From: Octopus vulgaris
Lineage: Eukaryota
Length of the DNA stretch: 64,000 nt
Direction: 5' to 3'
Assembly: GCA_951406725.2 (NCBI GenBank)
Contig: OX597827.1
Span: 67,332,001 to 67,396,000 of the forward strand
Shown here piece by piece: positions 25,718-62,147 of the stretch. The notes under the pieces are model-generated. The model did not search any database. It worked only from the letters and a program-made list of their open reading frames with translations, and had not been told where the DNA came from. Both the position numbers and the translations under genes were made by a program. The first letter of the stretch is position 1. Each line of letters begins with the position of its first letter.

Positions 25718-25915
25718 ATTCGACATGTTAGATCGCAATCCGCCACACATTCTTTATTTTCTCTCCTTGTTTTCTTTCTGTGTTCCTTTCTGTGGAAGAG
25801 CGTAGGCTCGAAACGTTAAAGACTTTTTCACTTCCCGAGCGTTATACTAATACATCTGTTTGTTGCCTGCACAACCTGTCTTCGTCTTTCGTTTTTTTTT
25901 TTTGTGTGAATTCTC
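25718..25915 (+). mobile_element. HHR-bearing element family D, copy 1 (HHR 25786-25821)
   Basis: 8-bp TSD tcaatctg at 25710-25717 and 25916-25923; cttt CTGTGGA a gagc-gtag-gctc GAAAC GTT aaag. Confidence 0.85.
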
Positions 25916-26464
25916 TCAATCTGTAACAGTTGTTTTTAATACCACACACACACACACAGAGACATGCGCTATTTCAGTTTCTCTCTATCTTTTCGCTTTT
26001 CACTACCTCTCTATTTCTACGTATTATCTGATCACATTTCATCTCCCTAAATATCCTACTTATTTTCAGGTTGGCACTTAGATATTTGCATGCATAATCA
26101 AGTGCATTAATGTTTATCATGATAAATAATAACTTTACAACGGAGGCAAAGAAGTTGAAGGTTTCGAAACAGTTCTCCATAAATATGCTCCACAGTGATT
26201 TTAGAAAAACATTTTACAGAACTGGATTCTATGAGACGCTTTGATTCGTTCTGTTAGTAATGCTGATATATGTAATGAACTGAACAACAATATATATGCA
26301 TTTATTTGCATGTATGTATGTATATATGTATGTATGTATATACGTATATGCATGAATATAGACGAGATTTGGTAGTTCGTATACAAATATATATGTGTGT
26401 ACGTATTCACATAATTCGCATAAATATATTTACAAACATATAAATGCATATATATGTATGTATG

Positions 26465-26513
<49 letters not shown>

Positions 26514-26808
26514 ATATATAAATATATATATATGTATATATATATGTATATATATATGTGTGTGTGTGTATATATGTATATATATATGTATGTATGTATA
26601 TACATATATATATATGTTCTGTTGCGTATACTTGTGTGTACGTGTGCATGTGCGTTTGCATGTTGTGTACGTGTGCACGCGTGCGTATGTGCGCGTGTGT
26701 ACGTGCGTGCATCTGCTTGCGTGCGCCTGTTTATTTTCCATTGTTTTATTTTTCCGATTCATTATATCGCTCTATTTCTTTTAATTCTTTCTGAAATCAC
26801 TGCACCTT

Positions 26809-26854
<46 letters not shown>

Positions 26855-27759
26855 TCTTCCTGTCCTACACTCACACAGATGTGCATATAGATATGAATTA
26901 TACACTCAGTCTATCTGTATAACTTATTTTTGCAAAAGTAATCAATTTATCTATGTATTTATATATCAAGGAAGCTATTCATCCGTACATCTATTTATAT
27001 ATTGAATCATTCATTTTTTAAAAAATTAACTACGTATCTCTGCGCCTCGTTGTGTATGTATGTGTGTCTGTTTTAGTTATGAGTGAATTAGACAGAAAAA
27101 TAGACAGAAAATTATAGATTTCTGCATTACATCTGCGCATTCGGTAGGGCGTGATATTGGAAATTAACGATATAAGTACGTAGGATGTTTGAAATACACG
27201 ATATTAAAACGGAGTGTATTTGAAATACAAGATAGGAAAATGCAGTTGTGTTGAAACAAGTATCATCAAAATAAGTAATATTGGAAGTAGGGTATATCAA
27301 ACGACGGATGCATGGAAATCTCAGAAACAAACTTTGCAAAATTTGAAATAGTGGTTATGAAAACACATAGTGCTGAAAACAAAAATATCAGAATACATAA
27401 TTGTTTAAAATAATGCATATCAAAATGTAGGATATTTCAAGTAGAGGATATCAAAATATAAGACATTCGAAGTACAAAGCATCAAAATGTACGTTTGTGA
27501 TAACTGATTCAAATTTTGGCATACGAACAGCCATTTAGGGGAGGCTGCTAATCGATTAGATCGATCACAGTACTAGCTGGGACTTATTTTTTGTACGACT
27601 AAAATAATGAAGGACAAAGTCAGCTTCGATTGAGTTTTTGCTCATATTTGATAGAAGAAATGCAACTGAGCATTTCATTCGGCTTGCTAACATTCCTGCC
27701 GACTGGCCGCCATTGAGTTCTCTAAAATAGTAGGTCACTGGATTTGTATGATATCCAAA

Positions 27760-28157
27760 AGGAGTGGCTGTGTGGTAAGTAGCTTGCTAACCAACCACAT
27801 GGTTCCGGGTTCAGTCCCACTGCGTGGCATCTTGGGGAAGTGTCTTCTGCTATAGCTCCGGGCCGACCAATGCCTTGTGAGTGGATTTGGTAGACGGAAA
27901 CTGAAAGAAGCCTGTCGTATATATGTATATATATATATATGTATGTGTATGTGTGTTTGTGTTCCCCTAGCATTGCTTGACAACCGATGCTGGTGTGTTT
28001 ACGTCCCCGTCACCTAGCGGTTCGGCAAAAGAGACCGATAGAATAAGTACTGGGCTTACAAAGAATAAGTCCTGGGGTCGATTTGCTCGACTAAAGGCGG
28101 TGCTCCACCATGGCCGCAGTCAAAATGACTGAAACAAGTAAAAGAGAGTAAAAGAGT
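27760..28157 (+). mobile_element. SINE family B, full length
   Basis: Consensus match. Confidence 0.9.
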
Positions 28158-28306
28158 ATATCAATTTGAAAGATATTTGATACGCATGATATCAAAATGT
28201 ATATTTTGAATATGGGATATTAAACCTAATGTAAAAATATAGGAAAATACTGCCTATGAAATTACAAATGAAAGTAATGAAGTGCGAGTTCATAATAGCC
28301 GTTCTC

Positions 28307-28339
<33 letters not shown>

Positions 28340-28876
28340 GTATATATATATCGGATAAGTATGGTATGACTTCCTATATTCAACTTATTGTATCCATATT
28401 ATTATTTGATCGTGGCGTTTATCAAACCTATTCAGTTTTATTTTGGGATGTTTAAATATTGGAGAAACATTGTTTGTTTATCATTTAGTAGACATTAAGA
28501 CTCCTCGTTATAGCGGTTATCTAAAATAAAATGTATCTTTACAATTTTCATATCTATATAAAATTTTAAATAATTTCTGTTGTGCGCAACAGCAAGTTAA
28601 TTATACCGGCCCGCTTGATTGTTTGCAAAAGGTATTGTTTATAAATGAAAGGCACTATTTATAACATCTGTATCATCAATGTACTTTGATCGATCCTATC
28701 CTCGACAGCCCTCTCTATGCATGAATATCTGAGATGGATTCACTCTAAAATGAGTATAATTCCCGCATAATTACCCCAAAATTTAGATTACATGTGTTCA
28801 CTAACCTATACGTGTGTACGTGTGTGCGTGTGTACGAGTGTCTTAAATACATGAAACACATACTGAAAATTATTTA

Positions 28877-28932
<56 letters not shown>

Positions 28933-28933
28933 G

Positions 28934-28966
<33 letters not shown>

Positions 28967-29031
28967 GTATATATATGTATGTATGTATATATATGTATGT
29001 ATGTATATATATGTATGTATGTATATATATG

Positions 29032-29084
<53 letters not shown>

Positions 29085-29243
29085 GTATGTATGTATGTAT
29101 GTATATTTGAAGATGTAAGGAATATTTACTTTATATATATCTACAATATATTTCGTTTGGTTTGATCTTCGACCGTCATCAAGTTGTCACCACATATAAC
29201 TGGATAAATTAAATGACCAGAAGTCTAATCTTTGTTTCGCTTG

Positions 29244-29278
<35 letters not shown>

Positions 29279-30056
29279 CATTAATGGAAAAATCTACTCT
29301 TCGTTTGACCTTCGATATTACTGCTGCAACTGTTGTGTAAAGAACAGTACCTTCGAATAACAATGGGTGAATGTATTTCAGCTTTATCACGGTTACTGCT
29401 CTATGTCAATCGTATTATCCCATTTCTATAAAATGGTCGCCTATTTTACTTCACTTCATAATAAATCCCGTAGTAATACATAATTCAATATATTCAAAAT
29501 ATGTCACAGTTTATATTTTTCGAAAATTTTGCTTTCCCTGAACGTGAATTTTAATAGTTATTACAGAGTCTAAAATTGAAAGTTAAATTCCGGGTTGGAA
29601 TTTTAATGCGGTTACGAAATACAAGTATTAGTTTCCCTTTCGATAATTTTCTATGTATAATATCACCGAATGAAAATATATTTATAAAAAGCTATCGCAT
29701 CGTTTAACTAGAAAGCAATGCTAACCAGACTGTGTCTAATATAAAAAATATATATTGATATATGATTATATGCGTGCGTGGGCTGATCAGAAGACATTGA
29801 GATGATAATATATAAACCGCAAAGTGGTCAATATATTGATGACAGTAAATATCTTAGGATATATAAAATTGCAACATTAATATTTGTGATGGATATGTAA
29901 CAGAATAAAAGAACAAAGACTCGGGAAAAAACAAGAGATCAAACGGTAGTGAAAACAAGACAGCCTCTGTTTTACGTATTGAGTTTCTGTGTGTGTAAGC
30001 GAGTGCGTGTATGAGGGTGTGTGATTTAATATACATATAGGTAAGAATCTGTGTCC

Positions 30057-30138
<82 letters not shown>

Positions 30139-30250
30139 CTCATATGTATATGCATAAATATTTATATATACTTGTACATTTAGGCAGGTATATGCGCATT
30201 ATGTATATGTATATATACATATACATACGGTCATTCATTTATATATACAC

Positions 30251-30297
<47 letters not shown>

Positions 30298-30306
30298 CAC
30301 ACACAC

Positions 30307-30371
<65 letters not shown>

Positions 30372-30990
30372 CGTACATACGCGAGGAGGCACATAAGTAA
30401 AAAACGAAGTGGAAACGTAGTACTCGAATACCGAAGGTAGATTAATATACTTTTTTATTAAAACACACACACACACACACTCACAGACACACACACACAC
30501 ACACACGCATATATATATATATATAGATAGATCGATAGATAGATACATACATACATACATACATACATACATACATACATACATACATACATGCATACAT
30601 ACATACATACATACATACATACATACATACATACATACATACATACATACATACATACATACATACATACATGCATGCATACATACATATAGACATACAT
30701 ACATATGTACATATATATAGTTATATATGGAATTATATATATGTATATGTATATATCACAATCATATATATATATCACAATTTTGAAGATAAACTACCGG
30801 AGGTTAGAGTGATTTGCGGGCTGTAACTGGCAAATGGGCCTTGCTATGTTTGACAGGGAATATACAACATAATGTGAACGTGCTTCAATCGATATATTAA
30901 TAGACATATACCCCAAAATCCAAATAGTTATACACCTGCACACACAACCCAAAGACAAACACACACACATATATATATTGTGTGTATATA

Positions 30991-31054
<64 letters not shown>

Positions 31055-31220
31055 GATATGCAGTTACAAACAATATAAATGATAAATATTCAGGTTTCCG
31101 ATCAAAACTTATATGTACCTCGTGATTCAGCCCAGTACCGTGTAAGTGTCTTAGTATTTTGCAGTCAGATGTAAGTTTGTGGTCGATATAGGGACAAAAA
31201 TGGCGTAACCTGGATTTTAA

Positions 31221-31825
31221 AATTTCAGATACAGCGTAAGCGTAATAAATTTCTTCTATTGTTCAGAGGTTTACTCAAAACTCCGCTTTATCCTAAACTA
31301 TTGAGAAAGTTGTTTTGTACACCTACCGCTGACTACTCGGAGCTAACTAACTTCATACACTTAGATTTCATGCAAGCAACGTTTTGAACCATGGAGAATT
31401 TATACCGGAATATTGCAGAATTTTAAAATCTTTTTATAAACATCTTTTTTGCAATTGTCTGATAATACAGACATAGACTTGCCCAAATGCATAACTAAAT
31501 TAACATTGATATTTTCTTCACTGTTGTTACAATCATCTGAAATAGAATTGTAAAAGCGCGATATTAGAGCAATTTCAGATACAGCGTAAGCGTAATAAAT
31601 TTCTTCTATTGTTCAGAGGTTTACTCAAAACTCCGCTTTATCCTAAACTATTGAGAAAGTTGTTTTGTACACCTACCGCTGACTACTCGGAGCTAACTAA
31701 CTTCATACACTTAGATTTCATGCAAGCAACGTTTTGAACCATGGAGAATTTATACCGGAATATTGCAGAATTTTAAAATCTTTTTATAAACATCTTTTTT
31801 GCAATTGTCTGATAATACAGACATA
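31221..31825. repeat. 255-bp direct repeat with a 95-bp spacer
   Basis: 31221-31475 reads identical to 31571-31825. Confidence 0.95.
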
Positions 31826-31907
31826 AGCAATATCAAATAAGTCATCCAAGTAATATTTAAATTTCGTTTCATTTCCAATTTGATTTTTTTTTGTTTTTGT
31901 TTTTGAA

Positions 31908-32165
31908 GTGAACTATATTATTCATTCTTTTTTCGATTCTCGGTAAGCCCTTGTTGTTTGTCTCTGATTGGTATCTTAGCGTTGTTCCAGATCTCATTTA
32001 TTTCTGTATACACACTATCTCATGCTTCCATCACTGTGAACTATATTATTCATTCTTTTTTCGATTCTCGGTAAGCCCTTGTTGTTTGTCTCTGATTGGT
32101 ATCTTAGCGTTGTTCCAGATCTCATTTATTTCTGTATACACACTATCTCATGCTTCCATCACTGT
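31908..32165. repeat. 128-bp head-to-tail tandem duplication
   Basis: 31908-32035 reads identical to 32036-32163. Confidence 0.95.
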
Positions 32166-32389
32166 TTTCTTATCATGTGTGAAATAGAAAAGGAGTCGTG
32201 ATACATCTCCAATTGATGGGAGATTTTTACTACTAATCTTTTCAATCGTTTATGCGATAAGCCACATCTGTTTTTCAGGTCTTTTCATTAAGATAGAAAT
32301 GTTTAATTAAAACACTGCGTCAGTGGGGGTGCTAACATATCTACACACGACAAAATTTATAACAATTCTTATTAGGGAATACGACATAC

Positions 32390-32905
32390 GTGACACCTTG
32401 GCATGTGTCTTCTACTATAGCCACTGCCTACCAAAGCCTTGTAAGTGAATTTAGTAGATGGAAATTGAACGAAGCCCGTCGTATATATATATATATATAT
32501 ATAGGGAGAGTTTCCGAAAAAAACAAAAGATGAAGACAGGTGGTGTACAAAACAAACAGATGTATTAGTATAACGCTCAGGAATAGAAAAAGTCTTTTAC
32601 GTTTCGAGCCTACGCTCTTCTACAGAAAGGGACACAGAAAAAACAAGGAGAGAAAAAAAAGGAGAGAAAAAATGTGTGTAGTGGCTAACGATGTGTGTAT
32701 TTGTGTGTGTGTTTCTTCCCCACCATGGCTTGACAACCGATGTTAGTGTGATTACGTCCCCGTCGCTTGACGGTTTTGCAAAAGAGCCCGATAGAGAAAG
32801 TAGTAGGCTTACAACCAATAAGTCCTAGGGTCGATTTGTTCGACTAAAGGTAGTGCTCCAGCATGGCCGCAGTCAAGTACCTGAATCAAGGAAAAGAATA
32901 AAAGA

Positions 32906-32907
<2 letters not shown>
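32390..32907 (+). mobile_element. SINE family B interrupted by a family D element
   Basis: Family B match at 32390-32482 and 32693-32907. Confidence 0.85.
32503..32692 (-). mobile_element. HHR-bearing family D, copy 2 (HHR 32594-32629)
   Basis: Reverse complement: cttt CTGTAGA a gagc-gtag-gctc GAAAC GTA aaag; inserted in (TA)n. Confidence 0.85.
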
Positions 32908-32967
<60 letters not shown>

Positions 32968-32968
<1 letters not shown>

Positions 32969-33090
32969 GTGAGAATATAAAAAAACAAAAGACGAAGACG
33001 TGCGTATAAACGACAAAAAGTCTTTTATGTTTCGAGCCTACGCTCTTCAGCAGAAAGGAACACAGAAATAAACAGGATGAGAAAATAGAA
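32968..33090 (-). mobile_element. HHR-bearing family D, copy 3, internally deleted (HHR 33022-33057)
   Basis: Reverse complement: cttt CTGCTGA a gagc-gtag-gctc GAAAC ATA aaag. Confidence 0.8.
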
Positions 33091-33322
33091 ATATATACAT
33101 ATATATATATATATAATCAGAGCTTTTGTCTCCAAGCAAACTTTCAGACAAATATACAGCACGTCTTTCTTTTCCAGTATGATCAGACATATTTTGTGTT
33201 TGAACCTTAAGGATTGCTTAGCGACACAAGGAATGATTGAAAAAAATCCATTGATTTACCTTTGTTTCCACAGAGGGAAACTGTTAGTAGACCATATTTA
33301 AATACCATGATTTAAATAAATG

Positions 33323-33363
<41 letters not shown>

Positions 33364-33722
33364 ATGTATATGTACGTATGCAATTATATATGAAGATGCA
33401 TACACATACACATATATATGCATAAGTATTTACATATATTTATTTGCTTTTTATACATTTATATACACACACATTTAGTAACACACCAACACGTAACCGC
33501 TTGTACATACATTCCCATTGAATCTGCACGTGTTCATAAGAAGTGTACACTTAACTTTGTGTATATTTATATATTGTCTTGCAATTTTTGCTGAGATTTC
33601 ACTTTAGAGCTCTAAATGAACGCAATTTTGCTGATTTTTATCGAGCTCTGTATGTTATTGAAAACAAGTAGATGGCTATCTCGCTAGAGTAATTGAACTT
33701 TTAACCGATACCACGTCCTCAC

Positions 33723-33803
33723 CTGCTCCGTTAATGATCCGTTACTTATTATTTTTGCACTAAACAGTAGAATCGTACGTTTTCTACTCGCCGTTCCTAA
33801 CGT
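33723..33803 (-). CDS. Candidate internal exon (81 nt, TLGTASRKRTILLFSAKIISNGSLTEQ)
   Basis: Acceptor cttctctttcag, donor cag|gtgagg, open in phase 0; no homology recognised. Confidence 0.25.
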
Positions 33804-33911
33804 CTGAAAGAGAAGTACAATATCTTCCTGCTTACAACTTTATAATATCAGCTTTTTATAAATATATATATATGTACACATCCAGAATCTCATTCTATCT
33901 CTTCCTTGTGC

Positions 33912-33959
<48 letters not shown>

Positions 33960-34192
33960 CAGACATATGTATGCATATATACAAAGAAGGATACATATAT
34001 AGATAGATACATACATACATAGACAGACAGAAAATAGATAGAAAGAGGGATAAATAGAGAGATTGAGTGATAGATGTAGATATATACACACATATATACA
34101 TACATGTTTATGTGCACATATCTCGCTCTCAATTAATAAATGCGAGGACTCGCGCTTACACACACGCACACACACATTTGTGTGTGTGTGTG

Positions 34193-34280
34193 TGTATAAG
34201 GAGAATAAGACAAGGTAGAAAATGTCCTTCATGATAAAATTATTTTAGCATTTTCTACCTTGTCTTATTTTCCTTATACA
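34193..34280. repeat. Inverted repeat with 32-bp arms
   Basis: 34193-34224 versus 34249-34280. Confidence 0.85.
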
Positions 34281-34348
34281 TATCAACTCGTGTGTTCCTT
34301 TTCAACCTTCTACACACACACATATATATATATATGTATGTGTGTATC

Positions 34349-34443
<95 letters not shown>

Positions 34444-34586
34444 TGTATATATGTATATATACATATGTGCATATGTCCATATACATATATACACATATAT
34501 ATATATACATATATACATATAGATATATGTATATGCATATATATATTTATATAAACATATATATATATATACATATATATATATGC

Positions 34587-34634
<48 letters not shown>

Positions 34635-35691
34635 GTACATATACGCACACACCTATATATGTGTATGCATATACATATCCTAATATTATGTGAGCGTTTC
34701 TCTGTGCCACTATGTGTGGGTGTGTGTTTGTCTGTTTGCCGGTGTGCATAACACCAAATAGATGAAGAAGCTGGCACTGTTGACATTTCCATCAGCAACA
34801 ACGTTCTTATCCTCCTTCGTAGCTGAACCAAACTTCTTTTCCCTTTTGCTTTTTTTCTTTTTTCATATTTATGGAGAGAAATAGAAAGAGAGGCGATAGA
34901 GAGTGGGGACGGAAGAGAGAGTTATTTCCATATTTATTTTTATATTCTTTTGAATTTTTTTCACACATATATATATTCATATATTTTTCAATATATATCA
35001 ATTTACATTTATTGCTTCCACTTTCGTCTCACAGGCTTGTTTTATGCTTCCCACCTTTTTAAGAATCTTATGAATACATAAATACCTGTTAAACAGTCAA
35101 TGAACACTTTGGCATTCTTTCAATTCTTTACGGTTTCTCGCTCTCTGACTGGCTGGCTGGCTGGTTGACTGGGCTGATGGTTGGTTGGTTGATTGGTCGG
35201 CTGGTTACTTAGTTCGTAGGTTTGTTAGAAATTTCGGTTTTTACTTTATTCCATCTAGTATTACTTCATCAACTCCCTCGGTAGGTACTGCTCTCCTCTA
35301 CTGGTCACATGTACTCATCTTAGTAATTTGGTTTCTTTTACATTTATTTCAAAGTACATTTGCTGTTATAGTCTTCAGGCTCTTTTGTAATAATTTTCGT
35401 TGCTGTTTTAGTTGTTGTGGCGCTTTTTGGTATTTTCCAATAGCTGACAGTTTCTCAATATACTTCGACACTATGCCTAATTTTAAGTGATTTACTTTTA
35501 AAGTGGTCTCTATTTTGTTTTTCTTTTTATTGTGAGTGAGAAGAGCTTTGATGGCTAGCATTTGATTCTCGCTAAAGTCATCGAAAATTATATTATCATC
35601 ATCATTATCATCATCATCATTATTATCATTATTATTATTATTATTATCAACATCACCATCATCATCATCATCATCATCATCATCATTATTA

Positions 35692-35743
<52 letters not shown>

Positions 35744-36236
35744 GCCAATAAACCGGATATTGTTGTGAAAGACCAAAACAATAAAGTTTGCTTATTGATC
35801 GACATGAGCATCCTCTGTGATCATAATATCTCGGCGAAAGAGTTTGACAAGCCCAGAAAATATAAAGACCTGCTCATTGAAATTGAGAAAATGTGGCATC
35901 TCAAGGCGGTTACAATACCAGTGATCGTAGGAGCACTAGGAATGATCAAGAAGGGAACCGAAATTTATATGAGAATGATCCCTTGCTTACCATCCATGCA
36001 AGAAGTGAAAAAGATTGTCTTAACTGGTACATCACACGTATTGAGAAGAGCATTGTCGATGTGAGAACTATTACTACCCATGTATTTTAATTTAACTTTA
36101 ATTTTTTTTTTTTTAAATGAACGAACTAGTGAGTTTGGTTTAATGGCCTACCAATGTATACTATGAGTTTCTTTGCCCTAGGAGTCAGGAAGACACTCGG
36201 CAAGAAATGGAAGCAAATTTGAAAGAAGAGGAAATT
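35744..36236 (+). mobile_element. R4/Dong-type RLE non-LTR retrotransposon 3' fragment
   Basis: NKPDIVV...LLIDMS..D...KE..K..KY (PD-D/ExK RLE) and IPVIVGALG; flanked by (TAA)n on both sides. Confidence 0.9.
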
Positions 36237-36255
36237 TATAATAATAATAATAATA

Positions 36256-36885
36256 ATGATAGGGTTTATCGTAGCAGCCCACGATCAATGCCTATCTGCA
36301 AGAAACTACCAGGCCAACATATTAAAGAACGGCAGCTTCCCAATATGTCGTGTACGTCATCAACAAAATGCAACCAATGATCATGCTGTCTCCATGTGCA
36401 GTCTTCTTGCGCCTATAAAGTATCTCAACAGGCATGATAGAACTGCACAATATATTCACTGGATAATTTGCCAATACCTGGACCTGCCCCATGATAAAAT
36501 CTTGTGGGAACACAAACCACCCCCAGTGCTTAAAAATGGTCACATCTCACTCATCTTGGACTTTACCATACAAACTCACTGAATGATACATGCTAATAGG
36601 CCAGACATTATATTGAGAGAGTTCAGACATACCTCCTCATTGATACGACTGTCCCAATCGATATCAATGTATCTCTCAAGACCTACCAAAAACTGAGCAA
36701 GTATTAAGGATCTTGAAATAGAAATTGGCAAAATTTGGACCCTCAAGACTAAAATAATACATGTTGTCATAGGTGCTTTGGGAATGATAGCAAAAGTGAC
36801 TGATTCCTACTTAGCTCAGATACCAGGAAATCTCAAAATGGGAGAAATTCAAAAGGTAGTGCTTATGGGAACTGCCCATATCTTT
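36256..36885 (+). mobile_element. Second R4/Dong-type fragment (CCHC, RHD, RLE; decayed)
   Basis: AAHDQCL, degenerate CCHC (CRV..DH.VS.C), YLNRHD, ANRPDI, VVIGALG; starts at (TAA)n. Confidence 0.88.
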
Positions 36886-37265
36886 GTACCTTTAGTAGAC
36901 AGAATTCTAATTACTATTCGAAAAGAATAAGAATACCACAACTAATCGCTCGTTCAGAAGTTGCGTGAGAGAATAGGGAACACACGTTAGATAAAGTCGT
37001 ACAAGAGGCATTATCTTTACAATATTAGATAGAACCGACAGAGCTGGAGCACATTCTGTTAAAGTTCTGCTTCAGGTAACTCAGACTAACCTCTTTTTTA
37101 TACAACAAACTGTGAATTCTTAGCGGTTTAAAGTTAATGTAGAAAAAAAATTGGCTGACTCAGGTTAAGGTCATAATGCAAAGATTCCCTTGTTTATTAG
37201 AGTCTTACAAATGCAAAATAATGAACTGCAATGTATTATATAAGCTATTTGCTTTAAAGGTGGAG

Positions 37266-37800
37266 GCGATGTATGTGTTTATGAGCGAAACACCTAAACT
37301 CCACGCGGCTCCGGCAGAAGGTAATGGCGAACTTCTGCTGACTCTTTCGCCATAAATTTTTCTCACTCTTTCCTCCTGCATCTTGCAGTTCACCTGCGAC
37401 AGACCGGCGTCCTGTCTAGGTGGGGAAACCTATACGCCAAGGAAACCGGGAAACCGGCCCTTATGAGCCTGGCATTTTTCGAGAAGGAGCATTTTCTGGA
37501 GGCACATGGCCTAGTGGTTAGAGCAATAGACTTGTGGTCGAGGGATCTCGAGTTCGAATCTCAGACCGGGCGATGTGTGTGTTTATGAGCGAAACACCTA
37601 AGCTCTACGCGGCTCCAGCAGAAGGTAATGGCGAACTTCTGCTGACTCTTTCGCCACAACTTTCTCTCACTCTTTCCTCCTGCATCTTGCAGCTCACCTG
37701 CGACGGACCGGCGTCCTGTCCAGGTGGGGAATCCCATACGCCAAGGAAACCGAAAAACCGGCCCTTATGAGCCAGGCATGGCTCGAGAAGCAACAAACAA
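37266..37800 (+). mobile_element. Two tandem SINEs with family A-type head and third tail type
   Basis: 37266-37490 (5'-truncated) and 37498-37800 (tggcctagtgg, gagttcgaatct). Confidence 0.85.
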
Positions 37801-49319: not shown

Positions 49320-49367
<48 letters not shown>

Positions 49368-49567: not shown

Positions 49568-49641
<74 letters not shown>

Positions 49642-50344
49642 CGGAACATTTTCTTTAATTCTATTAACTTTTTAATAAACACATGCAGAAATAGCGGATG
49701 GGCCGAGCATTTTGAAATGTAGTTTACATATCGTGTTTAAGCGCTTTCGCTGCTTAATTTCTAATCTCTCTCTCTCTCTCTTGATCTCTCTCTCTCTCTT
49801 TATCTCTCTCTCTCAAACACACACGCACATACACATATACACACAAATCTACCAGATTTACCAACAATCGCTGATAGTCAAGTAAACATAGAAGAAAACA
49901 CTTGCCCAGCTTATCGTGCAGTGAGATTGAACCTGCAAATCACACCGTTGCAAAGGCGAACTCCTTAACCACATAGCCATGTTAGTACCTGTACCACAAC
50001 GTTTCACATAAACTATTTCCCTTACTCTGTGTCTGGAGTTTCTTACATGCCTTTTCCTAGATATATTATCTTCTAATCGTTACTTCAGCCAGGCATCGCT
50101 GTATTCTACCGGTTAATTCTTGTACAATTTTCTCCATATTTATCTCTGTAAATAGCTCGACTGTTTTTATGCTATATTCACTTTACGTTGACTTATTTAC
50201 TAATGTTCTTCCTAGTTCTTCCAGACCTTCATAGCCATTTCCTTCTAAGTATTGATATTCCTCATGCAATGAGTTCATCCTTTAATAAAAGTTTTATCTA
50301 TAAAACTAACATGTCCATATTGACAGCGCATCACTTACTTAGCT

Positions 50345-50396
<52 letters not shown>

Positions 50397-51649
50397 TGTA
50401 TATATGTATATATATATATACACATATATATATACATATATATACATATATATATGTATATATATATACACATAATATCTCTCTCACTCTACCTCTCTCT
50501 ATATATATATATGTATATATATGTACATATATTTGTATGAGCATGTATGTGTGTGTTTGAGTGTGTATATCCGTACTTACACACACACACACACACGCAC
50601 GCACATATATAGATACACGCCTACCAATTTTAACCACCTGCATTGTGATTTATCTACCTTTCTTTTCTCCTCTTCTTTGCCAGGAGATACGTAATTGCAT
50701 CTATCTTTAAATAATAGTAGAAATACTTCTTTCCTTCTATGTATGAAAATCCACCATATTAACTTTAACATTATCCGAAAGATAATATTAAATTTATCCG
50801 AAGGAATTTTTTTTTTTTTTGCAATTATCACAGTATCTTTCAAAAGTATTATAATACACGTATTATGATTTATATTTCTCTTGCGGTAACGTTCATTGTA
50901 TTACGTATAACGAATCTTGCATCATCTTTCACTGCATATATACTCTTTCAGTATTTCAATATATTTTCTTGTTTCATATATTTCCTTTAGCATAACGATC
51001 ATATTCATAATTACCTTACCATCGTATAAAATACGTATTTCATTTCCATAATAATTACATCCATTTGACTAATTCGCTTTTTCCCTTCCAAATGATTATT
51101 TTAAAAAGCTTAATTCTATCATTAGCTTAAATCACAATACATTTATATATTCTCATGTAAGTTCGATTCTAGTTAATTTTGATATAAGGAATTAATTAAC
51201 TATTATAATATAAGAAAGCTCGTAAGCTCATATACGAACGATTTCGGCAACTTAGTGACTACTTTTCTTTTAAAATAATGAATTATACGTATTTCACGCA
51301 ATAATTTTTGTGTCGCTTTAATTTTAAAATTGAAATAATTCTATGTAATTATTTACGTAGCATTTAGCTTAGCTGTACAACATTATTATTCCTCTGCATC
51401 CTATTTTAATTTAATCATTACATACACTAACTATTCTGTTCAACTTGTCCAAAATGTAGTTTTGCTTTGATTATTCGTTTTCATTATTTTGACGATCAGT
51501 TTAATTCTCGTACGTAATTATATTTACTAAATGCTTTATATCTTTTACACACTATATTCCCACATATACACCAAATACTTGTGACTACACACATTCCTAT
51601 TCGATGTTATCCTAGCCCACATTATCGTTTTCATTATAGAATAAATTAA

Positions 51650-52062
51650 AGGCGGCGACCTGGCAGAAACGTTAGCACGCCTGGCGAAATGCTTAGCGAT
51701 GTTTCGTCTGCCGTTACGTTCTGAGTTCAAATTCCGCCCAGATCGACTTTGCTTTTCATCCTTTCGGGGTCGAGAAATTAAGTACCAGTTACGCACTGGG
51801 GTCGATTTAATCGACTTAATCCGTTTGTCTGTCCTTGTTTGTCCCCTCAATGTTTAGCCTGTTGTGGGCGATAAAGAAATAAGAAACGTTAGCATGCCGG
51901 GAGAAATGCTTAGCTGTATTACATTTTGTTCAAATTCCACCGAGGTCAACTTTGCCTTTCATCCTTTCGGAGTCGATAAATTAAGTACCAGTTGCGTGAT
52001 GAGGTCGATCTTTCCAAAAATTTTGGCTCCTTTCCAAAAGTTTTGGGCCTTGTGCCTAGTAA
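51650..52062 (+). mobile_element. SINE family C, tandem pair
   Basis: Consensus match at 51650-51882 and 51883-52062. Confidence 0.9.
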
Positions 52063-52294
52063 AAAAATTATTATAGAATAAAGTAAATCCCATATGTGTG
52101 TGTGTGTATGCACATGTATGTGTATGATTATGTGTGCGGGTGCATGTGTGTATAAAAAGGGAATAACGGAATTAGCGTTTATTCCACGGTTTGCAATTGT
52201 ATTGAGCAACGTATAGGAGATAAACTATAAAAGAAGCTTGAAGACAGGGAAGCGAGAAATGGTAGCCATATTGATTACAGAACGCGTATTATAT

Positions 52295-52516
52295 TCTTTC
52301 ATTCTTTTACTTGCTTCAATCATTTGATTGCGGCCATACTGGAGCGTCGCCTTGAAGGATTTCAGTCGAACAGTTCCACCCATGGAGTTATTATTTTTAG
52401 AACCTAGTACTTATTCTATCGGATTCTTTCACCGAACCGCTAAGCCACGGGGACGAAAACTCACCAGCAACGGTTGAAAAGCGGTGACAGGGGAAAACAC
52501 AGATAGAAACACACAC

Positions 52517-52557
<41 letters not shown>

Positions 52558-52756
52558 AACACACACACATACACAAACACATACATATATACGACGGGTC
52601 TCTTTCAGGTTCCGTCTACCAAATCCATGCACAAGGCTTTGGTCGGCACGTGACAATAGGAAGAGAGACTTGCCCAAGGTGCCACGCACTGGGACTGAAC
52701 CCTGAACAATGTGGTTGCGAAAGAAGCTTCTTACCACACAGCGACGCCTGCGCCTA
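52295..52756 (-). mobile_element. SINE family B
   Basis: Reverse-complement consensus match. Confidence 0.88.
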
Positions 52757-53220
52757 TTTAAGGATTGATCCACAAGTATTTAGTTTAAACACTTGTGAAC
52801 AAATAAATACTGTTACAGAGTGGTTGAATTACAGACAGATAGACTGACACACTGACTGACAGACAGTCAGACAGATAGAAAGACGGCAAAACCAAAACCA
52901 AAAAAAAAACCCATAAAACCCAAAATACATAAATAAAATTACCCGGGGATGTAATTAGATTCCCACTGAAGGATAATCATACAATATTAATATAATGTAT
53001 AATTCAAACAACAAGATCATTAAAAACCAAGAAACTAAGAACCCCTTTAGAAGTTCGTCCCTAAAAGACGAACGAGACCAAAAGATAAGAGAGCCACAGA
53101 CAACAATCTTATCATATAAAACCATTATCCGCTGCCTATAGGGTACCAGTACGGTCTCGACATTTGGTAAGCACTGTTCAATCCAGGTGCGTCAACAGCG
53201 TCTATACACACACACATATG

Positions 53221-53290
<70 letters not shown>

Positions 53291-53339
53291 ATAGGAAAGA
53301 ATGGAGCTGAACGAAGATTTAACAAAATTCCTTTATTTT

Positions 53340-53425
53340 ATTTTCGACATATGTTTCGAAGTCTGCAAAATCCCTAATTCCGAATGAATAAGGAGTCCAT
53401 TATGCAGCTTTCTCTTCAGGAAAAT
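53340..53425 (-). ncRNA. Type I hammerhead ribozyme with canonical core and GUC site
   Basis: Reverse complement: attttc CTGAAGA gaaagctgca...tgcagacttc GAAAC atat GTC gaaaat; perfect 6-bp stem I, palindromic stem III; in an island (53286-53493) between two (TA)n tracts. Confidence 0.88.
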
Positions 53426-53490
53426 CCAGGAACTTAATTCTCCAACAAAATGCACAAGTTTTTCGCTAAGATACAGCTCATACTCATATA

Positions 53491-53549
<59 letters not shown>

Positions 53550-53654
53550 TTGTGTGTGTGAGTGTATGTATATATAGACGTATATATATATATATGCATA
53601 TATATATATGCACATACATAAATGTGTGTACGCGCACATTGAGGGAAGGCTCAA

Positions 53655-54548
53655 ATGATTGACCCGCCGTGGCTCTCCACCCATGTCATTTCTGTACCAT
53701 TCTGCACAGTTACTAGCTTCTTTGATGTTGTCGCTATAACTGCTTCTAGGTCTTCCTCTTGTTCCTTTTTGATACACCACGCCAGTTGAGAGCAAATTGT
53801 TAAGGACTTGTCTTGTAAGTATAACGTCTGTCCATTTTCTTTTCATAATAACATTTAACAGTCTTTCCTGTCACTTTATATTGCGAAGGACCCACTCGTT
53901 AATTCTTTTATCCGTCCAGCTTATCCTGAGAATACGTCTTAAACGCCATTGTTTAAATGCTTCAATTTTCCTTCTGTTAATTTTCTTCATAGTACAGCTT
54001 TCAGGTCCATATGTGGATATGATAAATATCAATGAATTCAGGAGTTGTTTTCATTTTTTTCGTTTTGTTCTCCTATAGTTTCCCATGCTGTTCAGTTTAT
54101 CAAAGCTGATTTGGTTATTCCGAGTTTTTTCATCTTTTCACGGACGCCATTGCAAGCATTGGTAATAATAGTACAAAAGTTCAGAAATTCATTTTTTGTT
54201 TTAGATATCTTCGTTGTTCATTATGTCACCTTGTTCATTGTCGGTTGTGCTTTTTAATTATTTTGATTACTTAAGTTTGGTCGGAGTGTTAGATGAAACC
54301 CAGCTCGAGTACTTGCATCGGTTATTCTATTAACTAAGTCCTCTAGCACTTGAATGCTACCGGCTATGAGAACTTCATTGTCTGCATACCTCAGATTTGT
54401 GATAAAATTGCTTTTAATTTTGACGCTTCCAGTGAAAACAAACAACATGTATTTCCATTTTGGCTCGGAATATATTTGAAAGAGGTGCTGAGAAAGGATG
54501 CTCCCTGGCGTACACCTCGTACAATGTCAAACCAGTCAGTTTTCAGGG
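53655..54548 (-). mobile_element. RTE-clade LINE fragment (decayed RT and C-terminus)
   Basis: TDWFDIVRGVRQGSILS, NLRYADN, G.RGRPR.SY.DNI. Confidence 0.85.
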
Positions 54549-54747
54549 AGTTATATATATCATTATATATTCATAAGTGAATGTATGTATGTAGCGTATT
54601 ATAGACTACAGTTTTCCACCGTAAGATGAAATATTCAATAAGGTATATGGAGCTAGACGATTTAAACAAAAGTCTCAATGGCTATATAACTTTTATTTTT
54701 CTGAAACATGTTCATTCCATTTGGTAATAGAAAAACCAAGAAAAACT

Positions 54748-55217
54748 TACATTATTTATATTATTTACATTTGACGGATATTTGTCCTCATATTTTTTGT
54801 TGTTAACACGTTTCGGCTGATATAACTTCCAGCCTTCATCAGATGTTTTGGGGAAATTTTGAACCTGGGTTCTCATCCATAAGGTATTTTTCGGTGTTTG
54901 TGGTGGTGGTGGTGTTGTTGTTGTTGTTGTTGTTATTATAATTCGAGTCACTGCCTGGAATCGAACTCGGAATCTTGGGGTTTTGAACCCCGCGCTCTTA
55001 TAATAATAGTAATAATAATAATAATAACAACAACATCGAAAAATACCTTATGAATGAGAACCCAGGTTCGAAATTTCTCCAAGACACCAGAAGAAGGCTG
55101 GAGGGTATATCAGCTGAAACGTTGTGTTAACAACAAACAAGATGAGGACAAGTATCCGTCAAATGCAAATAATGTAAATAATGTACATAATTCCTCGTAT
55201 CTTAAATATAGAACTGT
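54748..55217. mobile_element. tRNA-headed hammerhead element (-) with an inverted copy of its HHR tail (+)
   Basis: Minus strand: tRNA-like 55000-54941 (taagagcgcggg...gagttcgattcc), (AAC)n linker, HHR 54847-54805; plus-strand arm 55034-55217 with HHR 55083-55128. Confidence 0.85.
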
Positions 55218-55457
55218 AAAAATAATCTGTATTCCCAACACAGAGCACCGGAAACCTTAGTGATTAGAAACATTAGTTACTTACAATATTTATATAAGTT
55301 TTACTTTCGTTTTCCCAAAAAGCATCTATTCCCAGAATATATACAACATCTACAGCTAAAATGATGTCCTAAGTTCTAAATTTGTTTCTTTACTCCTACA
55401 TATATACATACATGTGTGTGTTTGTGTGAGTGCGAGCTTGAGTACGTGTGTCAGGGC

Positions 55458-55523
<66 letters not shown>

Positions 55524-55585
55524 TATATAAATATATATAAATATATATATATTTATACATACATGTATATATATATGTATGTATA

Positions 55586-55621
<36 letters not shown>

Positions 55622-56477
55622 AATATATATATATTTATATATATATATGTATATAAATATATGTATGTATATATATATACATATGAAGCACTAACGCACA
55701 TACTCAAACAAACTCAAACAAACACAAGTATAAAGTTATATATATATATATGTGTGTGTGAGTGTGTGTGTGTACTTCTCTCAGCACGCACAATCACATA
55801 CGTATACTTATGCACACACATATAAATATATATAGACATATACCTGTGTACATATTTTCGAAGGTCATCATATGCCATCATCTGAATTACCTTGCATGCA
55901 AATCTGTTGAGATGAATCAATATTCCGGGACGAAATGAATATTGTTGGTATATTTTTTTTCTTGAAAGCAATTTACCCCAAATAGATTGAGTTTATGGGA
56001 TTATATTTAGTTTGGTATTAAGAAACCTGAGCACAGCCAAATACGTCATATGCATACATACACACATACATATGTGTATATAAATATATATACATATACA
56101 TATATAACATATGACATATATATATATGATGTGCATACAGGCTTGCATATTTGTGTTTAAGCATATATTTCTTATTCTCTACAGGTCTGGAGAGAAATAA
56201 CTGCTTACGTATGTGTATTTATAAATATAGTTGAATGGAAACTATGTTTGCAAATACATATGTTCTTACATTCGTGTATGTATACAAGTAAATATATTCA
56301 TAAATATATATAAATACCTATACATTCATACAAACATAGACACGCATATATATACATATACATAGATATACATGCATATATATGTATATGTATAAACATC
56401 TATATATATCTTTATATATATATTTATTTATATCTATATCTATCTATCTGTCTGTCTAATTTATCTAGCTTTCTTTC

Positions 56478-56508
<31 letters not shown>

Positions 56509-57575
56509 AACATATATATCGACTCGCACAGATACCTACACAAATCAGATACATAAAGGCACATCCTCATGTACACGATTGACAGAAAGGTTACTGTGAA
56601 ATGTGTAGCGGCCGACATTGTTTGAAATACAAGTGAAATTGCTCAGAGGGTTGTAAAATAAATAATCTTAAAAAGCAAACGCAATATATATTTTGAAGCT
56701 TGTGCTGAAGAAAAATGTTAACAATATTTCCTTCAGGTCAGTGTGAAACATTTTCAATAAAAGGAAAACATAGAATGATGCAAAACCCGATGTTAAGATA
56801 AAGGGAATTGCTAAATTTGGAACACCAGATTACTATGTGTTTGTTGTCAGAGATCGGTTCCTTATTGCTGAGCACCAACCAACACAACCATACAAACACA
56901 CTGAAACATCAACGCAATAATATATGTACAAACACATACAAACTCGCAGACATTCACACACATACACACACACTCATGTTAAAACTTCCACATAACATTG
57001 GTATACACATCATTTACTAACACGAGCCAATGAAAGCGCATCTTTTTTATCGATCATGCTACCTGTTATAGATATAACATCTGCCTTAAATATTTCTTCC
57101 CTATCTTTCAAAAGAAACGTTTTCGCGTGTGTTGGATGTGTTTGATAAGCAGCCAAGAAAACTTACAGGATAAACAAGACTGGAGGATATTTTCGATCAT
57201 ATCTCGGTTTGATGAGAAAGGTAACGAATTTAGAGTGTATTAAATGGGCCTATGGAGAAGACTGTATGAGAAACAACAACGAGAAACAGCAAGTACACTT
57301 GCATGAAGCCACAAAGTAACATTTTAAGACAAGAAGTTCATGTTAAATCATTATAGCCTCATATACAGCGCCGGAAATAGAATAAATATACTGTGCTGGA
57401 CCTAATACAAGAAAACGGCAATTTAAGGAACGCTTTAATTTTGTGTATGGCAATATGGAGTTTGAAGAAGAGGAGATAAGCTGAGATCTGTTCCGGAATT
57501 GACAGCTGTAAATGATAAACATTTCATCCTCAAAGCTTCGTTACAGAAAAATTAAGGAAAACATTGAGGAAAAAT

Positions 57576-57603
57576 AATTATTAATTAATTAATTTTACCC
57601 TTT

Positions 57604-57644
<41 letters not shown>

Positions 57645-57789
57645 CAGTTGGAAGTTCTATTATATATATATATATGCACACGCAGAGATATTTATCTATA
57701 TGTATATATATATGTATGTATTACAAGAACAATTATAAAACCTCGTACTCGCACATGACAAAAGACAAATACCCAGATAAGCACACAAA
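57576..57789 (+). repeat. Dispersed local duplication (copy at ~62555-62766)
   Basis: Shared aattcagttgga...gcacacgcagagatat...caagaacaattataaaacctcgtactc...atacccagataagcacacaaa. Confidence 0.9.
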
Positions 57790-58041
57790 TATATATATAT
57801 ATTATAAAAAATAAAGTGCTCAGAAATCTGGATGGTTCTACATTTACAGATTTTTATTAATATGTCACATGTTTTTATAAATCATATATATATTAGCGCT
57901 TGCATCTACTCTAGTAGATTCTTCCGATTTTCATAATATATATGTACACATGCATACGCATGTATAAATATATATCATTATATAATGTGTACATACATAT
58001 ATATGTACATATATATATATATTTATATATATGCATGTATG

Positions 58042-58104
<63 letters not shown>

Positions 58105-58124
58105 ATGTATGTATGTATGTATAT

Positions 58125-58158
<34 letters not shown>

Positions 58159-58243
58159 AATGGCATAATGATAGTATTCTTATATAGTAGTGTTGAACAC
58201 GAGTATTTTATGAATATTTAAAGCGATATACACACAGACTCAC

Positions 58244-58277
<34 letters not shown>

Positions 58278-58843
58278 TGCTATATATATACATAAGGTAG
58301 ATGCACACAAGGCCTTTCTTTATGCATAGTATACATTTTGATGGCTTCATCATTTTAGAAATACTACGCAACATGAATATATTATTACATAAATGTACTG
58401 TACGAGAAATTACATTGTTCGTGTCTACGAAGGAAAAAGAGAACTTATTTTCTGGAAAAAGTATTTTTGTACCAACTCACACTTCTTTTAGTCATCTCCA
58501 ACAGATTTTTATCTTTTTAACCAGGAAGCGCCACAAAAAAAAATAAGACTGCAATCCGAAATTTGGACCGCAGTTCTCAGGGATCCGTGACGTCTCGTCT
58601 CGTCATATACAAAGAGTCGTGAGAAATGAAAGAAGACGGGAGAATAGCAGAGTTACTGTTCCCTCATCTTCTTTTGTTACGTACGATTGCTTCAGATCAA
58701 GAGTCAATACGGCTACAACGCGGAGGACAGGAGCAATAAATACAAAAATATATAAAATACAAAATATTAAGATTATCATCGATCCTTTGTAACACATACT
58801 CCAGGCGACTGCAAGAAGTTACATGAAAAACAATTTATATACA

Positions 58844-59072
58844 GAGATGTACTCGCATAGCAAGTAATTTGATCTGAGATCGTGTGCTGAAACGAAAACA
58901 ATTGCAGCGTTGAAGGTGTTTATAAGCCATTTAAGAAACACACAAAAGCCGTTCGATTCACTTCAACATTTAAGTTTAATTTGACAAATTAAACTTAAAT
59001 GTTGAAGTGAATCGAACGGCTTTTGAGTGTTTCTTAAATGGCTTAACAAAACACCTTCCACGCTGCAATTGT
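58844..59072. mobile_element. Fold-back insertion with a 12-bp TSD
   Basis: Arms 58898-58983 and 58985-59072 with a 1-nt loop; direct repeat aatttatataca at 58832-58843 and 59073-59084. Confidence 0.85.
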
Positions 59073-59136
59073 AATTTATATACATCCAAACGTCTATTTA
59101 CATATGTAAAGAACCTTACATAATTACATATTGTCA

Positions 59137-59172
<36 letters not shown>

Positions 59173-59179
59173 CATCATG

Positions 59180-59251
<72 letters not shown>

Positions 59252-59422
59252 TATATATATGCATGCATACATACATATATTATATACGTACATATATGCA
59301 TACATGCATACAGACATACATACTTACAAAAAGAAAAGAAAATACTCATTTCTATATCACTGATTAGATATCTGTCATATATATATATATATATATATAT
59401 ATGATGTGTGCATGCATGTATG

Positions 59423-59474
<52 letters not shown>

Positions 59475-60097
59475 GATACAAGCATACACGCATACATCCG
59501 TACATACATACATACATACATACATGCATACATACATACATACATGTATACGTATACACGGAATGCTTCTGTAACATTTATTTCTGTCTATACATTCCAT
59601 ATATGTTGAAACTTAATTCTAAATTGTATAAGTAATCCTCTGTAAGAACTACACATTTCAATCCCATATGTTTTTCTGCCGACCTCATCGTCCCATCGAC
59701 AATCCCTAAAACATGTCTGCCTTTATAACTACATGAAATGCGAACATGTTCTCGCGTAGTAAATCCTAATATATTTATTATACGTGATTTTCATTGGAAA
59801 GTTTGTATGCAATCATTCCTCGCCAGATATTCGTTAACGGTTTTGTTTTCCTTTTTTTTTGTTTTTTTGTTTTTTGTTACTATGTGTTAATAGTTTCCTG
59901 GATGTTTCTGATTTCTTTTCAGATAAACAATTATCAAAACCAACAAGTATTGCGTTTAACGATGCATATTCCAATTAGCAACTCGAATATTTGCATATTT
60001 ATCAGTACTAGTCATCTTGTTAATCTTCACATATTTAGTCATATCTGTTTTCTGTTTTAAGAAAGTACAAAGCTCACACACCCCAAAAAGTAAATAA

Positions 60098-60153
<56 letters not shown>

Positions 60154-60154
<1 letters not shown>

Positions 60155-61113
60155 TGAGTGAGAGAGCAGTTCATGCCATCAAAGTGACACTGGGGTAAAA
60201 TATACGAAGCCCAATATACCCATCATGACTACCCATCTGATAAGGGTACACCAGGCACATGCATCACAACCATATGTGCACGATATGGTGATCACATATC
60301 AAGATAAACAGTGCATGACCTTGCAGGTGAGGCCCAGTTAAAATTTTCTTCAGGTTAAGTAGCCCATCCTACTCAAAAGGTCCCTGAATGAGGGTTGTTT
60401 AAGTATGTTGAATGAAACACCCATGTTTCCAAACGTGAATTATCCCAACCCCAAATAAATCCTCTCAACACATGGTTATGATGCTCCCCCATTATTCCTC
60501 CACATGATCAGAGATGCACATATCGTCAGCCACTAAGGGACATGGTCAACTGGTTAAGGTCAAACAACTGACAAGTAAATCTGTGGTATTGAGCAGAATA
60601 TTTGCTGTAGCCCATCTTTTATACCAAGACAAAACAATGTACATGATAACACCTCCAACCAGTTAAGATGAGAAGCCATGAAAGCCATTGCCTGGTATGC
60701 CTTTACACAGCTTCTAACGCTGGAGATGAACTACAGTGTCAGCTGTTCACTAACGTAACACCTATTTTCTCGAGCATCTTCCGGAGTATTCGAGCGGTTC
60801 CAACCAGTGCTGTTTTCTGCAAGTGCTCCACACTTATTGCAGCCCCTATTTGTTCCGCGTACTTCTCAAGATTTTTGCTCACTGTTCCCAGGGCTCCGAC
60901 AATTATTGCTACTACTGCTACCTTTTTCATCGACCACAACTGCTTTACCTCCCAAGCTAACGTGTCATATCTATCGACTTTACTTTCTTCCTTATCGCAT
61001 AACTTGTTGTCAGCTGGGCATGCTATATCTATGATCCAGCATAGTTTGTTTTCTTTCTTAATTAAAGCTATGTCTGGCTTCCTATTCTCTATTTCATGGT
61101 CGCACTGAATCAT
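60154..61113 (-). mobile_element. R4/Dong-type RLE retrotransposon 3' fragment with long 3' UTR
   Basis: ORF 60739-61113 has RKPDI...IIDIACPAD..KE..K..RY and IIVGALG; 3' end abuts (TAA)n at 60099-60153. Confidence 0.9.
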
Positions 61114-61412
61114 AAAATTGGCGGAAATTGAACTCAGAACGTAATGACAGACGAAATACTGCTAAGCATTTCGCCCAGCTTGCTAACGTTTCTGCCAGGT
61201 CGACGTCTTAATATGGATGTTTATTGTGTAAGAGTATTTTTTTTTTAGTGTTTGTATACTGTACGTGTTTCTACATAAATATGGGTGTAATATGTCAGTC
61301 TATAATTTCATCACTCTGTTTCAAGTATGTTGGTACTGTATACGTAGAAAGATTTTATTATGCTCATAATATAACGTATCTATGTTTGAAAGTATGTGTA
61401 CGCGTATAAGTG

Positions 61413-61449
<37 letters not shown>

Positions 61450-61969
61450 CGTGGTAGGCAACCAGGGTTGCCAGGTATGCGAATAAAATACAAGAGTTAA
61501 GGAATGGAATAGATAAGTTCCGGGCTATATATTTTTCATAACGAACGGAACATCGGAAGAGGTAAATGTATACCACAGGTGTATACCACAGGCTAATCTT
61601 CAGGCTGAGGGTATGTTGATTAAATGAATTTTACATTGTGATAAGGAGGTGCGTGTCATCATGTGGGTGAAACATCTCTTAGTATGTTCTTGTTCCCTCA
61701 GAAATATGAACTTAATATTTAATTAATTCACCTGGAGTAATTGAAAGAGCTGTAAGAGAGGATGTTCGATTTGTTGTTAATAATAAACTCTTATTAATTT
61801 CACAATCTCCATTTTCTTCTTCCTTTATATGAATAAAAATTACACTGTTTATTTACAGAAATACCTATTATCTTAAGGAAATCAATTCCACCCAAAATAT
61901 TAGGTATTGAACCAGTAATTCCTTGGATGACACCATCCCTTCATGAGGCCAACATAACCTCTAATGGAA

Positions 61970-62147
61970 TTTTTTTTTCTTCTTGTTTCTCTCCTTGTTT
62001 CTTTTCTGTGTTTCTTTCTGTCGAAGAGCGTAGGCTCGAAACGTAAAAGACTTGTTCTATTTCTATTCCTGAGCGCAATACTAATACATTTGTTTGTTTG
62101 TCCTCCCCCTGCCTTCGTCTTTTGTTAATTTTCGTAAACCTTCCCGT
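61970..62147 (+). mobile_element. HHR-bearing family D, copy 4 (HHR 62013-62050)
   Basis: tcttt CTGTCGA a gagc-gtag-gctc GAAAC GTA aaaga; ends at (TA)n. Confidence 0.85.

Follow-up and report, generated by a model that had tools for sequence, protein, structure and literature searches.

A 64,000-nucleotide stretch of the Octopus vulgaris genome (GenBank assembly GCA_951406725.2, contig OX597827.1, positions 67,332,001 to 67,396,000; hereafter the window) carries four minimal hammerhead motifs that belong to the ends of a Penelope-like element (PLE). The element is an autonomous PLE with an endonuclease (EN+) that has been active recently, and its source copies have U at position 6 of the hammerhead core (U6). 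The hammerhead core consensus has an adenosine at this position (A6). We report that U6 is probably a derived state, and that the conservation of the motif since the loss of A6 leans towards a hammerhead fold that has been kept.

The motif and its position 6

All four window copies (Table 1) have the layout CUUU, C3 U4 G5 X6 N7 G8 A9, an extra A, GAGC GUAG GCUC, GAAAC, GU H, and AAAG, with the second and third copies (32594 and 33022) on the minus strand. The extra A falls between A9 and G10.1, and an extra base between 9 and 10.1 is a known trait of Penelope minimal hammerheads (PMC4209133). A 22-nt core pattern from G8 to U16.1, allowing up to 3 mismatches, finds exactly these four copies in the window and none in 100 shuffles. 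The original prediction had read position 6 of the four copies as U, U, C and U, and we find the four motifs where it placed them and with those bases. The N7 residue differs among the four because each copy belongs to a different subfamily. The C6 and the AUA triplet of the third copy are probably private changes that followed its insertion. Judged by place and sequence, the motif appears to be a variant of the PLE minimal hammerhead: it sits where one does, and it departs from the CUGANGA feature.

In the whole genome (2.8 Gb in 227 contigs), the 22-mer has 17,870 exact matches and its reversed control has none. Adding C3-G5 to the pattern leaves 17,744 copies, of which 17,059 have U at position 6 (96.1%), 211 have A, and 474 have C or G. 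Among the first 100 rows with C or G, 87 have C by a count made by eye. These minor states are consistent with decay from a source with U. We also drew a sample independent of the core: a 19-nt motif located 60-80 nt downstream was matched instead, and 90 of its first 100 hits, all within the first 11 Mb of contig 1, were taken. An upstream-flank filter kept 70 of these 90 and dropped 20, mostly copies truncated before the motif, although two of the dropped rows (L210 and L286) do carry a U6 motif. Position 6 is U in 68 and A in 2 of the 70 flank-picked copies. In contigs of four coded organisms, aligned on a natural A6 copy, U takes 98-99.8% of the depth at position 6, where contig depth is not copy number and four labels need not mean four distinct species.

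The rest of the hammerhead is intact. Of the core C3 U4 G5 A6 N7 G8 A9, the family departs at position 6 only and conforms at the six other positions. For G12 A13 A14 and the A15.1-U16.1 pair, each fixed site is kept in 66-70 of the 70 flank-picked copies, and H17 is A in 55, U in 13, C in 1 and G in 1. The structural traits are also in place: a 4-bp stem II, a stem I of 4-5 bp, an unpaired A9.1, the G10.1-C11.1 pair, and the palindromic stem III ACGU. The genome-wide consensus, proposed as the check on the four copies, has U and not A at position 6, and the expectation that standard searches would miss the family holds by construction for a CUGANGA descriptor.

The element that carries the motif

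At one locus, the sequence immediately before the motif holds the end of a reverse transcriptase (RT) and a GIY-YIG frame, in partial tandem with an inverted piece. A search with that locus gives 24,057 candidates, of which 114 were scored, and we fetched 20 loci with long frames. In 12 of these 20, two same-strand motifs about 4.5 kb apart flank the open reading frame (ORF), one in each pseudo-long terminal repeat (pLTR). In 51 loci (L076-L126), every motif printed is U6, with three loci having no motif in range.

The single ORF has 1080 amino acids. It combines an RT (Pfam RVT_1, E-value 1.4e-7, above the cut-off) with a C-terminal GIY-YIG domain whose profile match is weak (E-value 0.0066, below the cut-off) and whose motif is visible: the translation shows DKG, a CX4CxxC linker, and a CCHH-type GIY-YIG motif. 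The linker points to the Neptune or Nematis type. A Pfam search with a 358-amino-acid C-terminal fragment gives no match. Fourteen of 16 elements are comparable; their median identity is 99.6%, and 6 of the 14 have no stop over 2.9 kb. This identity, together with the intact ORFs and the U6 motif in both pLTRs, makes U6 the state of a recently active autonomous element. Partial tandem (pLTR) or inverted copies and (TA)n targets, as expected for a PLE, are seen at L076 and L107.

From the upstream motif to the start codon there are about 760 nt, and about 110 nt of the element follow the predicted downstream cut. Because the element continues beyond that cut, the genomic copies would derive from templates that were uncut or re-joined there. 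The family does not match a non-LTR retrozyme, made of non-coding tandem monomers of 170-400 nt, because its copies are truncated ends of a coding element, scattered through the genome.

A sister family with A6

A looser pattern with A6 has 7,647 matches (9 in the control). Most of the rows listed form a sister family: their stem II is that of the U6 family, their loop has 3 nt, and their flanks are homologous. Non-A6 matches with a short stem II (6-9 nt) number 182. In a tree of 168 pLTR rows, built with positions 6 and 7 removed and rooted on one sister row, the family with the GUAG loop is one branch (Shimodaira-Hasegawa-like approximate likelihood ratio test, SH-aLRT, 96). The A6 copies of this family, which were over-sampled, are scattered on the tree: they require 31 changes for 33 rows, one of which is a mislabelled sister row, and 359 of 500 shuffles are as low. 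A third, unrelated hammerhead family in the genome also has A6. Because A6 is found in the sister and the third family, because the A6 copies within the U6 family are scattered, and because the consensus is universal, we take U6 to be probably the derived state, and the A6 and C6 copies within the family appear to be scattered point changes. That the mobile master carries A6U, as the original prediction proposed, is thus borne out by the genome-wide counts, by the 12 long-ORF elements with U6 in both pLTRs, and by the tree.

Two candidates that would have complicated this picture did not hold. A possible second, independent U6 family has 93 matches, more than half with stem II GGCUG/CAGCC, and its off-target copies have A6 in 13 of 15 cases; point changes are the best explanation for those with U6. 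Nor do the data bring out an old subfamily with A6 or C6 within the U6 family: in 492 tests (best p 0.0096), no linkage of any site to either base emerges.

We find no full-length sister element: of 20 upstream stretches, one has a piece of a related ORF (58% identity over 50 amino acids) joined to the pLTR. That case, L372:2640-2914, is an internally deleted relative in which the N-terminal ORF piece is fused directly to a sister pLTR. Locus L044:1430-1600 looks like a chimera, with the 5' flank of the sister and A6 followed by the GUAG loop and the 3' flank of the U6 family, which suggests a template switch within the common hammerhead core. L354 and three further matches are U6-like motifs with a GUAG...CCAC stem; the flanks of L354 are unrelated.

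Conservation after the loss of A6

Clustering on flank columns only produces subfamilies whose copies differ from their own majority line by 10.8% to 2.3%, which we use as an age series. Among the 70 flank-picked copies, differences between five flank-defined subfamilies affect 38 of 80 sites in the flanks and 2 of 36 in the motif (Fisher p 5e-6). The two in the motif are N7 and H17, which a hammerhead leaves free. A larger, partly core-picked set behaves in the same way: with N7 and H17 set aside, 0 of 34 motif sites vary versus 43 of 106 flank sites. Variation confined to N7 and H17 is what a hammerhead predicts, and it leans to a hammerhead fold kept after A6 was lost. Stems I and II, which the original prediction expected to show conservation or covariation, are both conserved in the family; they covary only between families, where 4 of the 8 pairs do so and 98% of the cells are paired (22 hand-picked related rows).

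That U6 taken alone has been stable carries no weight, as about half of the flank sites likewise never changed. The first 100 of 745 matches in the oldest subfamily have U (77), C (14), A (8) or G (1) at position 6, and 31 other T sites have a median of 6% non-T, with 3 of them reaching 23%. This may point to a time when sources that differed at position 6 co-existed, but no marker linked to such sources is found.

Cleavage and rival explanations

The natural A6C hammerhead is active yet slow in Mg2+ (<0.1 per min) and is rescued by Mn2+ (PMC3088659, PMC7151607). According to PMC11167929, the hammerhead of an Anolis PLE needs its protein to cut, and the uncut RNA is the main template. We favour a reading of the octopus motif along these lines, to which we give about an even chance: the U6 motif would be a damped ribozyme that likely still cuts slowly, probably only as a dimer helped by the protein that the element itself encodes. 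Like natural A6C, U6 would slow the cutting. Predicted folds of the youngest subfamily show U4-U7 paired with A14-G16.2 when U6 is present (-10.8 versus -8.4 kcal/mol for a natural A6 copy), a closed rod in which the ACGU dimer palindrome would be masked. The majority of transcripts would then remain whole and become templates for reverse transcription, and the few cut at the upstream pLTR, about 735 nt ahead of the ORF, would leave a unit RNA or a new 5' end; this residual cutting would be what selection keeps. Hammerhead ends left after cutting can drive translation in viruses (PMC13725137), which we mention as a lead only. More tentatively, and with the chances on the low side, one may extend this reading to a cutting hammerhead without A6 that selection has kept through subfamily turnovers and in related organisms, as a brake or switch that the element's protein or another metal ion opens and that splits uncut templates from cut messengers.

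A number of observations weigh against a motif that cuts. A6C costs orders of magnitude in Mg2+ (PMC7151607), and a full mutational scan gives low activity for single changes of the CUGA turn, with only the 3:8 swap rescued (PMC9901934); relative to the A6 sister, we see no core change that would compensate for U6. The 5' junctions of U6 copies that follow (TA)n fall within -1 to +2 of the cut in 8 of 29 cases, without a significant peak (p 0.10). The A6 sister has no peak either (6 of 31, p 0.42), so this junction test has little power; just upstream of the cut there are 5 junctions for U6 versus 1 for the sister (p 0.10). The offsets come from reading the first 100 rows by eye (35 and 36 loci); one locus that was unclear is excluded. 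In addition, 70 of 90 copies run through the motif, the predicted folding of the 46-nt motif is no better than that of shuffles (z -1.2), and the closed-rod effect is of only 2.4 kcal/mol in a single comparison. Inside the U6 family, stem II and loop II are invariant and do not covary, and further pLTR blocks are also conserved; because of both, some of the constraint may act on the sequence rather than on the structure.

A rival reading has catalysis lost with A6 and the hammerhead-shaped RNA retained as a signal to the RT-endonuclease, for binding or for folding; N7 and H17 would be tolerant in this fold too. The strong in vitro effect of A6 changes (PMC9901934, PMC7151607), the cut site without a junction peak, and the invariant sequence of stem II and loop II all speak for it; moreover, catalytic mutants of the Anolis PLE hammerhead still insert, unimpaired, in vitro (PMC11167929), and Naiad PLEs are reported to spread without hammerheads (bioRxiv 10.1101/2021.04.23.441226). 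We regard such a catalytically dead fold as possible and yet somewhat doubtful, as G8, G12, the C3-G8 pair, U16.1 and a non-G H17 have all been kept across 5-7 subfamilies, and it is not obvious why a protein site would require the full catalytic set or exclude G from H17.

The two other explanations we consider unlikely. One has U6 as a fully functional alternative, selected as such, with the loss of A6 offset by a contact to loop II (GUAG) or by the element's protein. U6 has indeed been as stable as the other core bases over five or more subfamily turnovers in which N7 changed repeatedly, and the 4-nt purine loop II and U6 jointly set the family apart from its sister. However, one unchanged site is not significant given the flanks, the excess of non-U bases in the oldest subfamily (23 of 100 versus the median of 6% at other T sites) looks like relaxation and not like selection for U, and genome pattern searches found no second independent U6 family. 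We give just as little credit to the other explanation, in which the hammerhead look is a relic and the block is kept at the level of DNA or of linear sequence, because it serves the pLTR as a promoter or in splicing or priming. Several downstream pLTR blocks are equally conserved, a long pyrimidine tract lies directly upstream of the motif, and the stems do not covary within the family, all of which such a signal would accommodate. It would not account for N7 and H17 being the sole variable sites out of 36, for which the chance is about 1 in 630 (about 1 in 30 if loop II and 9.1 are free), nor for stems that covary between families.

A conserved CCYGAGCG block located 15-27 nt past the cut (L107:1655-1675 and homologous places), which the sister family also has, is complementary to the 3' strand of stem II, and its C/U variation keeps a G-C or a G-U pair. 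The block could be an alternative pairing; it appears in the predicted fold of a sister copy and not in those of U6 copies. Most sister copies and many copies of the U6 family (L365-L384, L001-L030) start 70-95 nt upstream of the motif, which may reflect a 5'-truncation hot spot or a short non-autonomous form.

Other features of the window

The window copies of the element are fragments of 125-200 bp, and two of them directly abut (TA)n tracts (Table 1). An Rfam scan of the window has no hammerhead family in the best 150 of 441 matches, a list dominated by microRNA matches driven by microsatellites.

Table 1. Hammerhead motifs and the element fragments that carry them, in window coordinates.
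Feature	Positions	Strand	Details
Minimal type I hammerhead	25786..25821	+	core CUGUGGA+A; U6 at 25793; predicted cut after 25817
Minimal hammerhead	32594..32629	-	core CUGUAGA+A; U6 at 32622; predicted cut after 32598
Decayed hammerhead	33022..33057	-	core CUGCUGA+A; C6 at 33050; G16.2->A; triplet AUA
Minimal hammerhead	62014..62049	+	core CUGUCGA+A; U6 at 62021; predicted cut after 62045
5'-truncated 3' end (pLTR) of Penelope-like element	25719..25917	+	G7/U17 subfamily; bounds approximate
5'-truncated pLTR end	32504..32692	-	A7 subfamily; stops at (TA)n tract
pLTR end, older, internally deleted	32968..33092	-	insertion separate from the 32504-32692 copy
5'-truncated pLTR end	61969..62146	+	C7/A17 subfamily; stops at (TA)n tract

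Two inverted arms of a different repeat family lie at 54745-55220, and both contain a minimal hammerhead with a longer loop and canonical A6; the core at 54842 (minus strand) is intact and that at 55088 (plus strand) has U4 changed to A. Six copies of a dispersed repeat of about 200 bp (70-95% alike), unrelated to the hammerhead, are found at 14379-14579, 20946-21146, 23516-23716, 25031-25231, 27760-27960 and 63121-63321. On the minus strand, a 259-codon open frame at about 6160-6940 resembles the C-terminal part of a long interspersed nuclear element (LINE) reverse transcriptase.

Significance and comparison with known systems

The role of the Penelope hammerhead is debated: it is a poor cutter alone and dispensable for insertion in vitro, yet it is kept. 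The octopus genome supplies a matched natural pair with which to approach the question, a young intact U6 element and an A6 sister with the same stem II, plus natural A6 point variants within the U6 family. Should U6 prove able to cut, the consensus of the hammerhead core is too narrow, and tens of thousands of motifs in each genome escape descriptor searches. Should it prove unable, the hammerhead fold has been retained in an autonomous element for a role other than catalysis, which would show the real target of selection. The brake or switch, if true, would be natural evidence that the 'invariant' core is negotiable with a protein partner, and that PLEs tune their ribozyme down.

The octopus motif resembles the metazoan PLE minimal type I hammerheads (Cervera and de la Pena 2014, PMC4209133) in its occurrence in both pLTRs, its short stem I, the extra 9/10.1 base, the G10.1-C11.1 pair, the palindromic ACGU stem III, and the thousands of truncated solo copies. 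It differs from them in that the consensus published there is CUGANGAH, with U3-A8 as the sole core variant, whereas here the source elements have U6. Our literature search found a natural A6C in print and no natural A6U, the Lunse 2017 catalogue and one supplement of PMC4209133 being outside its reach. That A6C hammerhead, from phage Bcep176 (Perreault 2011, PMC3088659; Naghdi 2020, PMC7151607), likewise has a natural pyrimidine at position 6 and the rest of the core intact. The phage case is a single motif with C. Here U is the fixed base, the motif is minimal and of the dimer type, and the autonomous retroelement that carries it numbers above 17,000 copies and has an A6 sister.

The Anolis Poseidon element PAc (Frangieh 2024, PMC11167929) is also an EN+ PLE with a hammerhead in its pLTR, and its uncut RNA is the template, as it would be here. 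The ORF of PAc begins inside the motif, unlike the octopus ORF, which begins about 760 nt downstream, and the account of PAc in the sections we draw on mentions no A6 change. With the Neptune and Nematis EN+ PLEs (Craig 2021, bioRxiv 10.1101/2021.04.23.441226), the element shares DKG, the linker (there CX2-5CxxC), the CCHH GIY-YIG motif, partial tandem and inverted copies, and (TA)n targets; the corresponding sections of that work mention no U6 hammerhead. Finally, the motif is like the small PLE-associated dimeric hammerhead variants of Lunse, Weinberg and Breaker 2017 (as cited in PMC6765202), which have a diminished stem III and cleave as dimers, as the octopus motif would.

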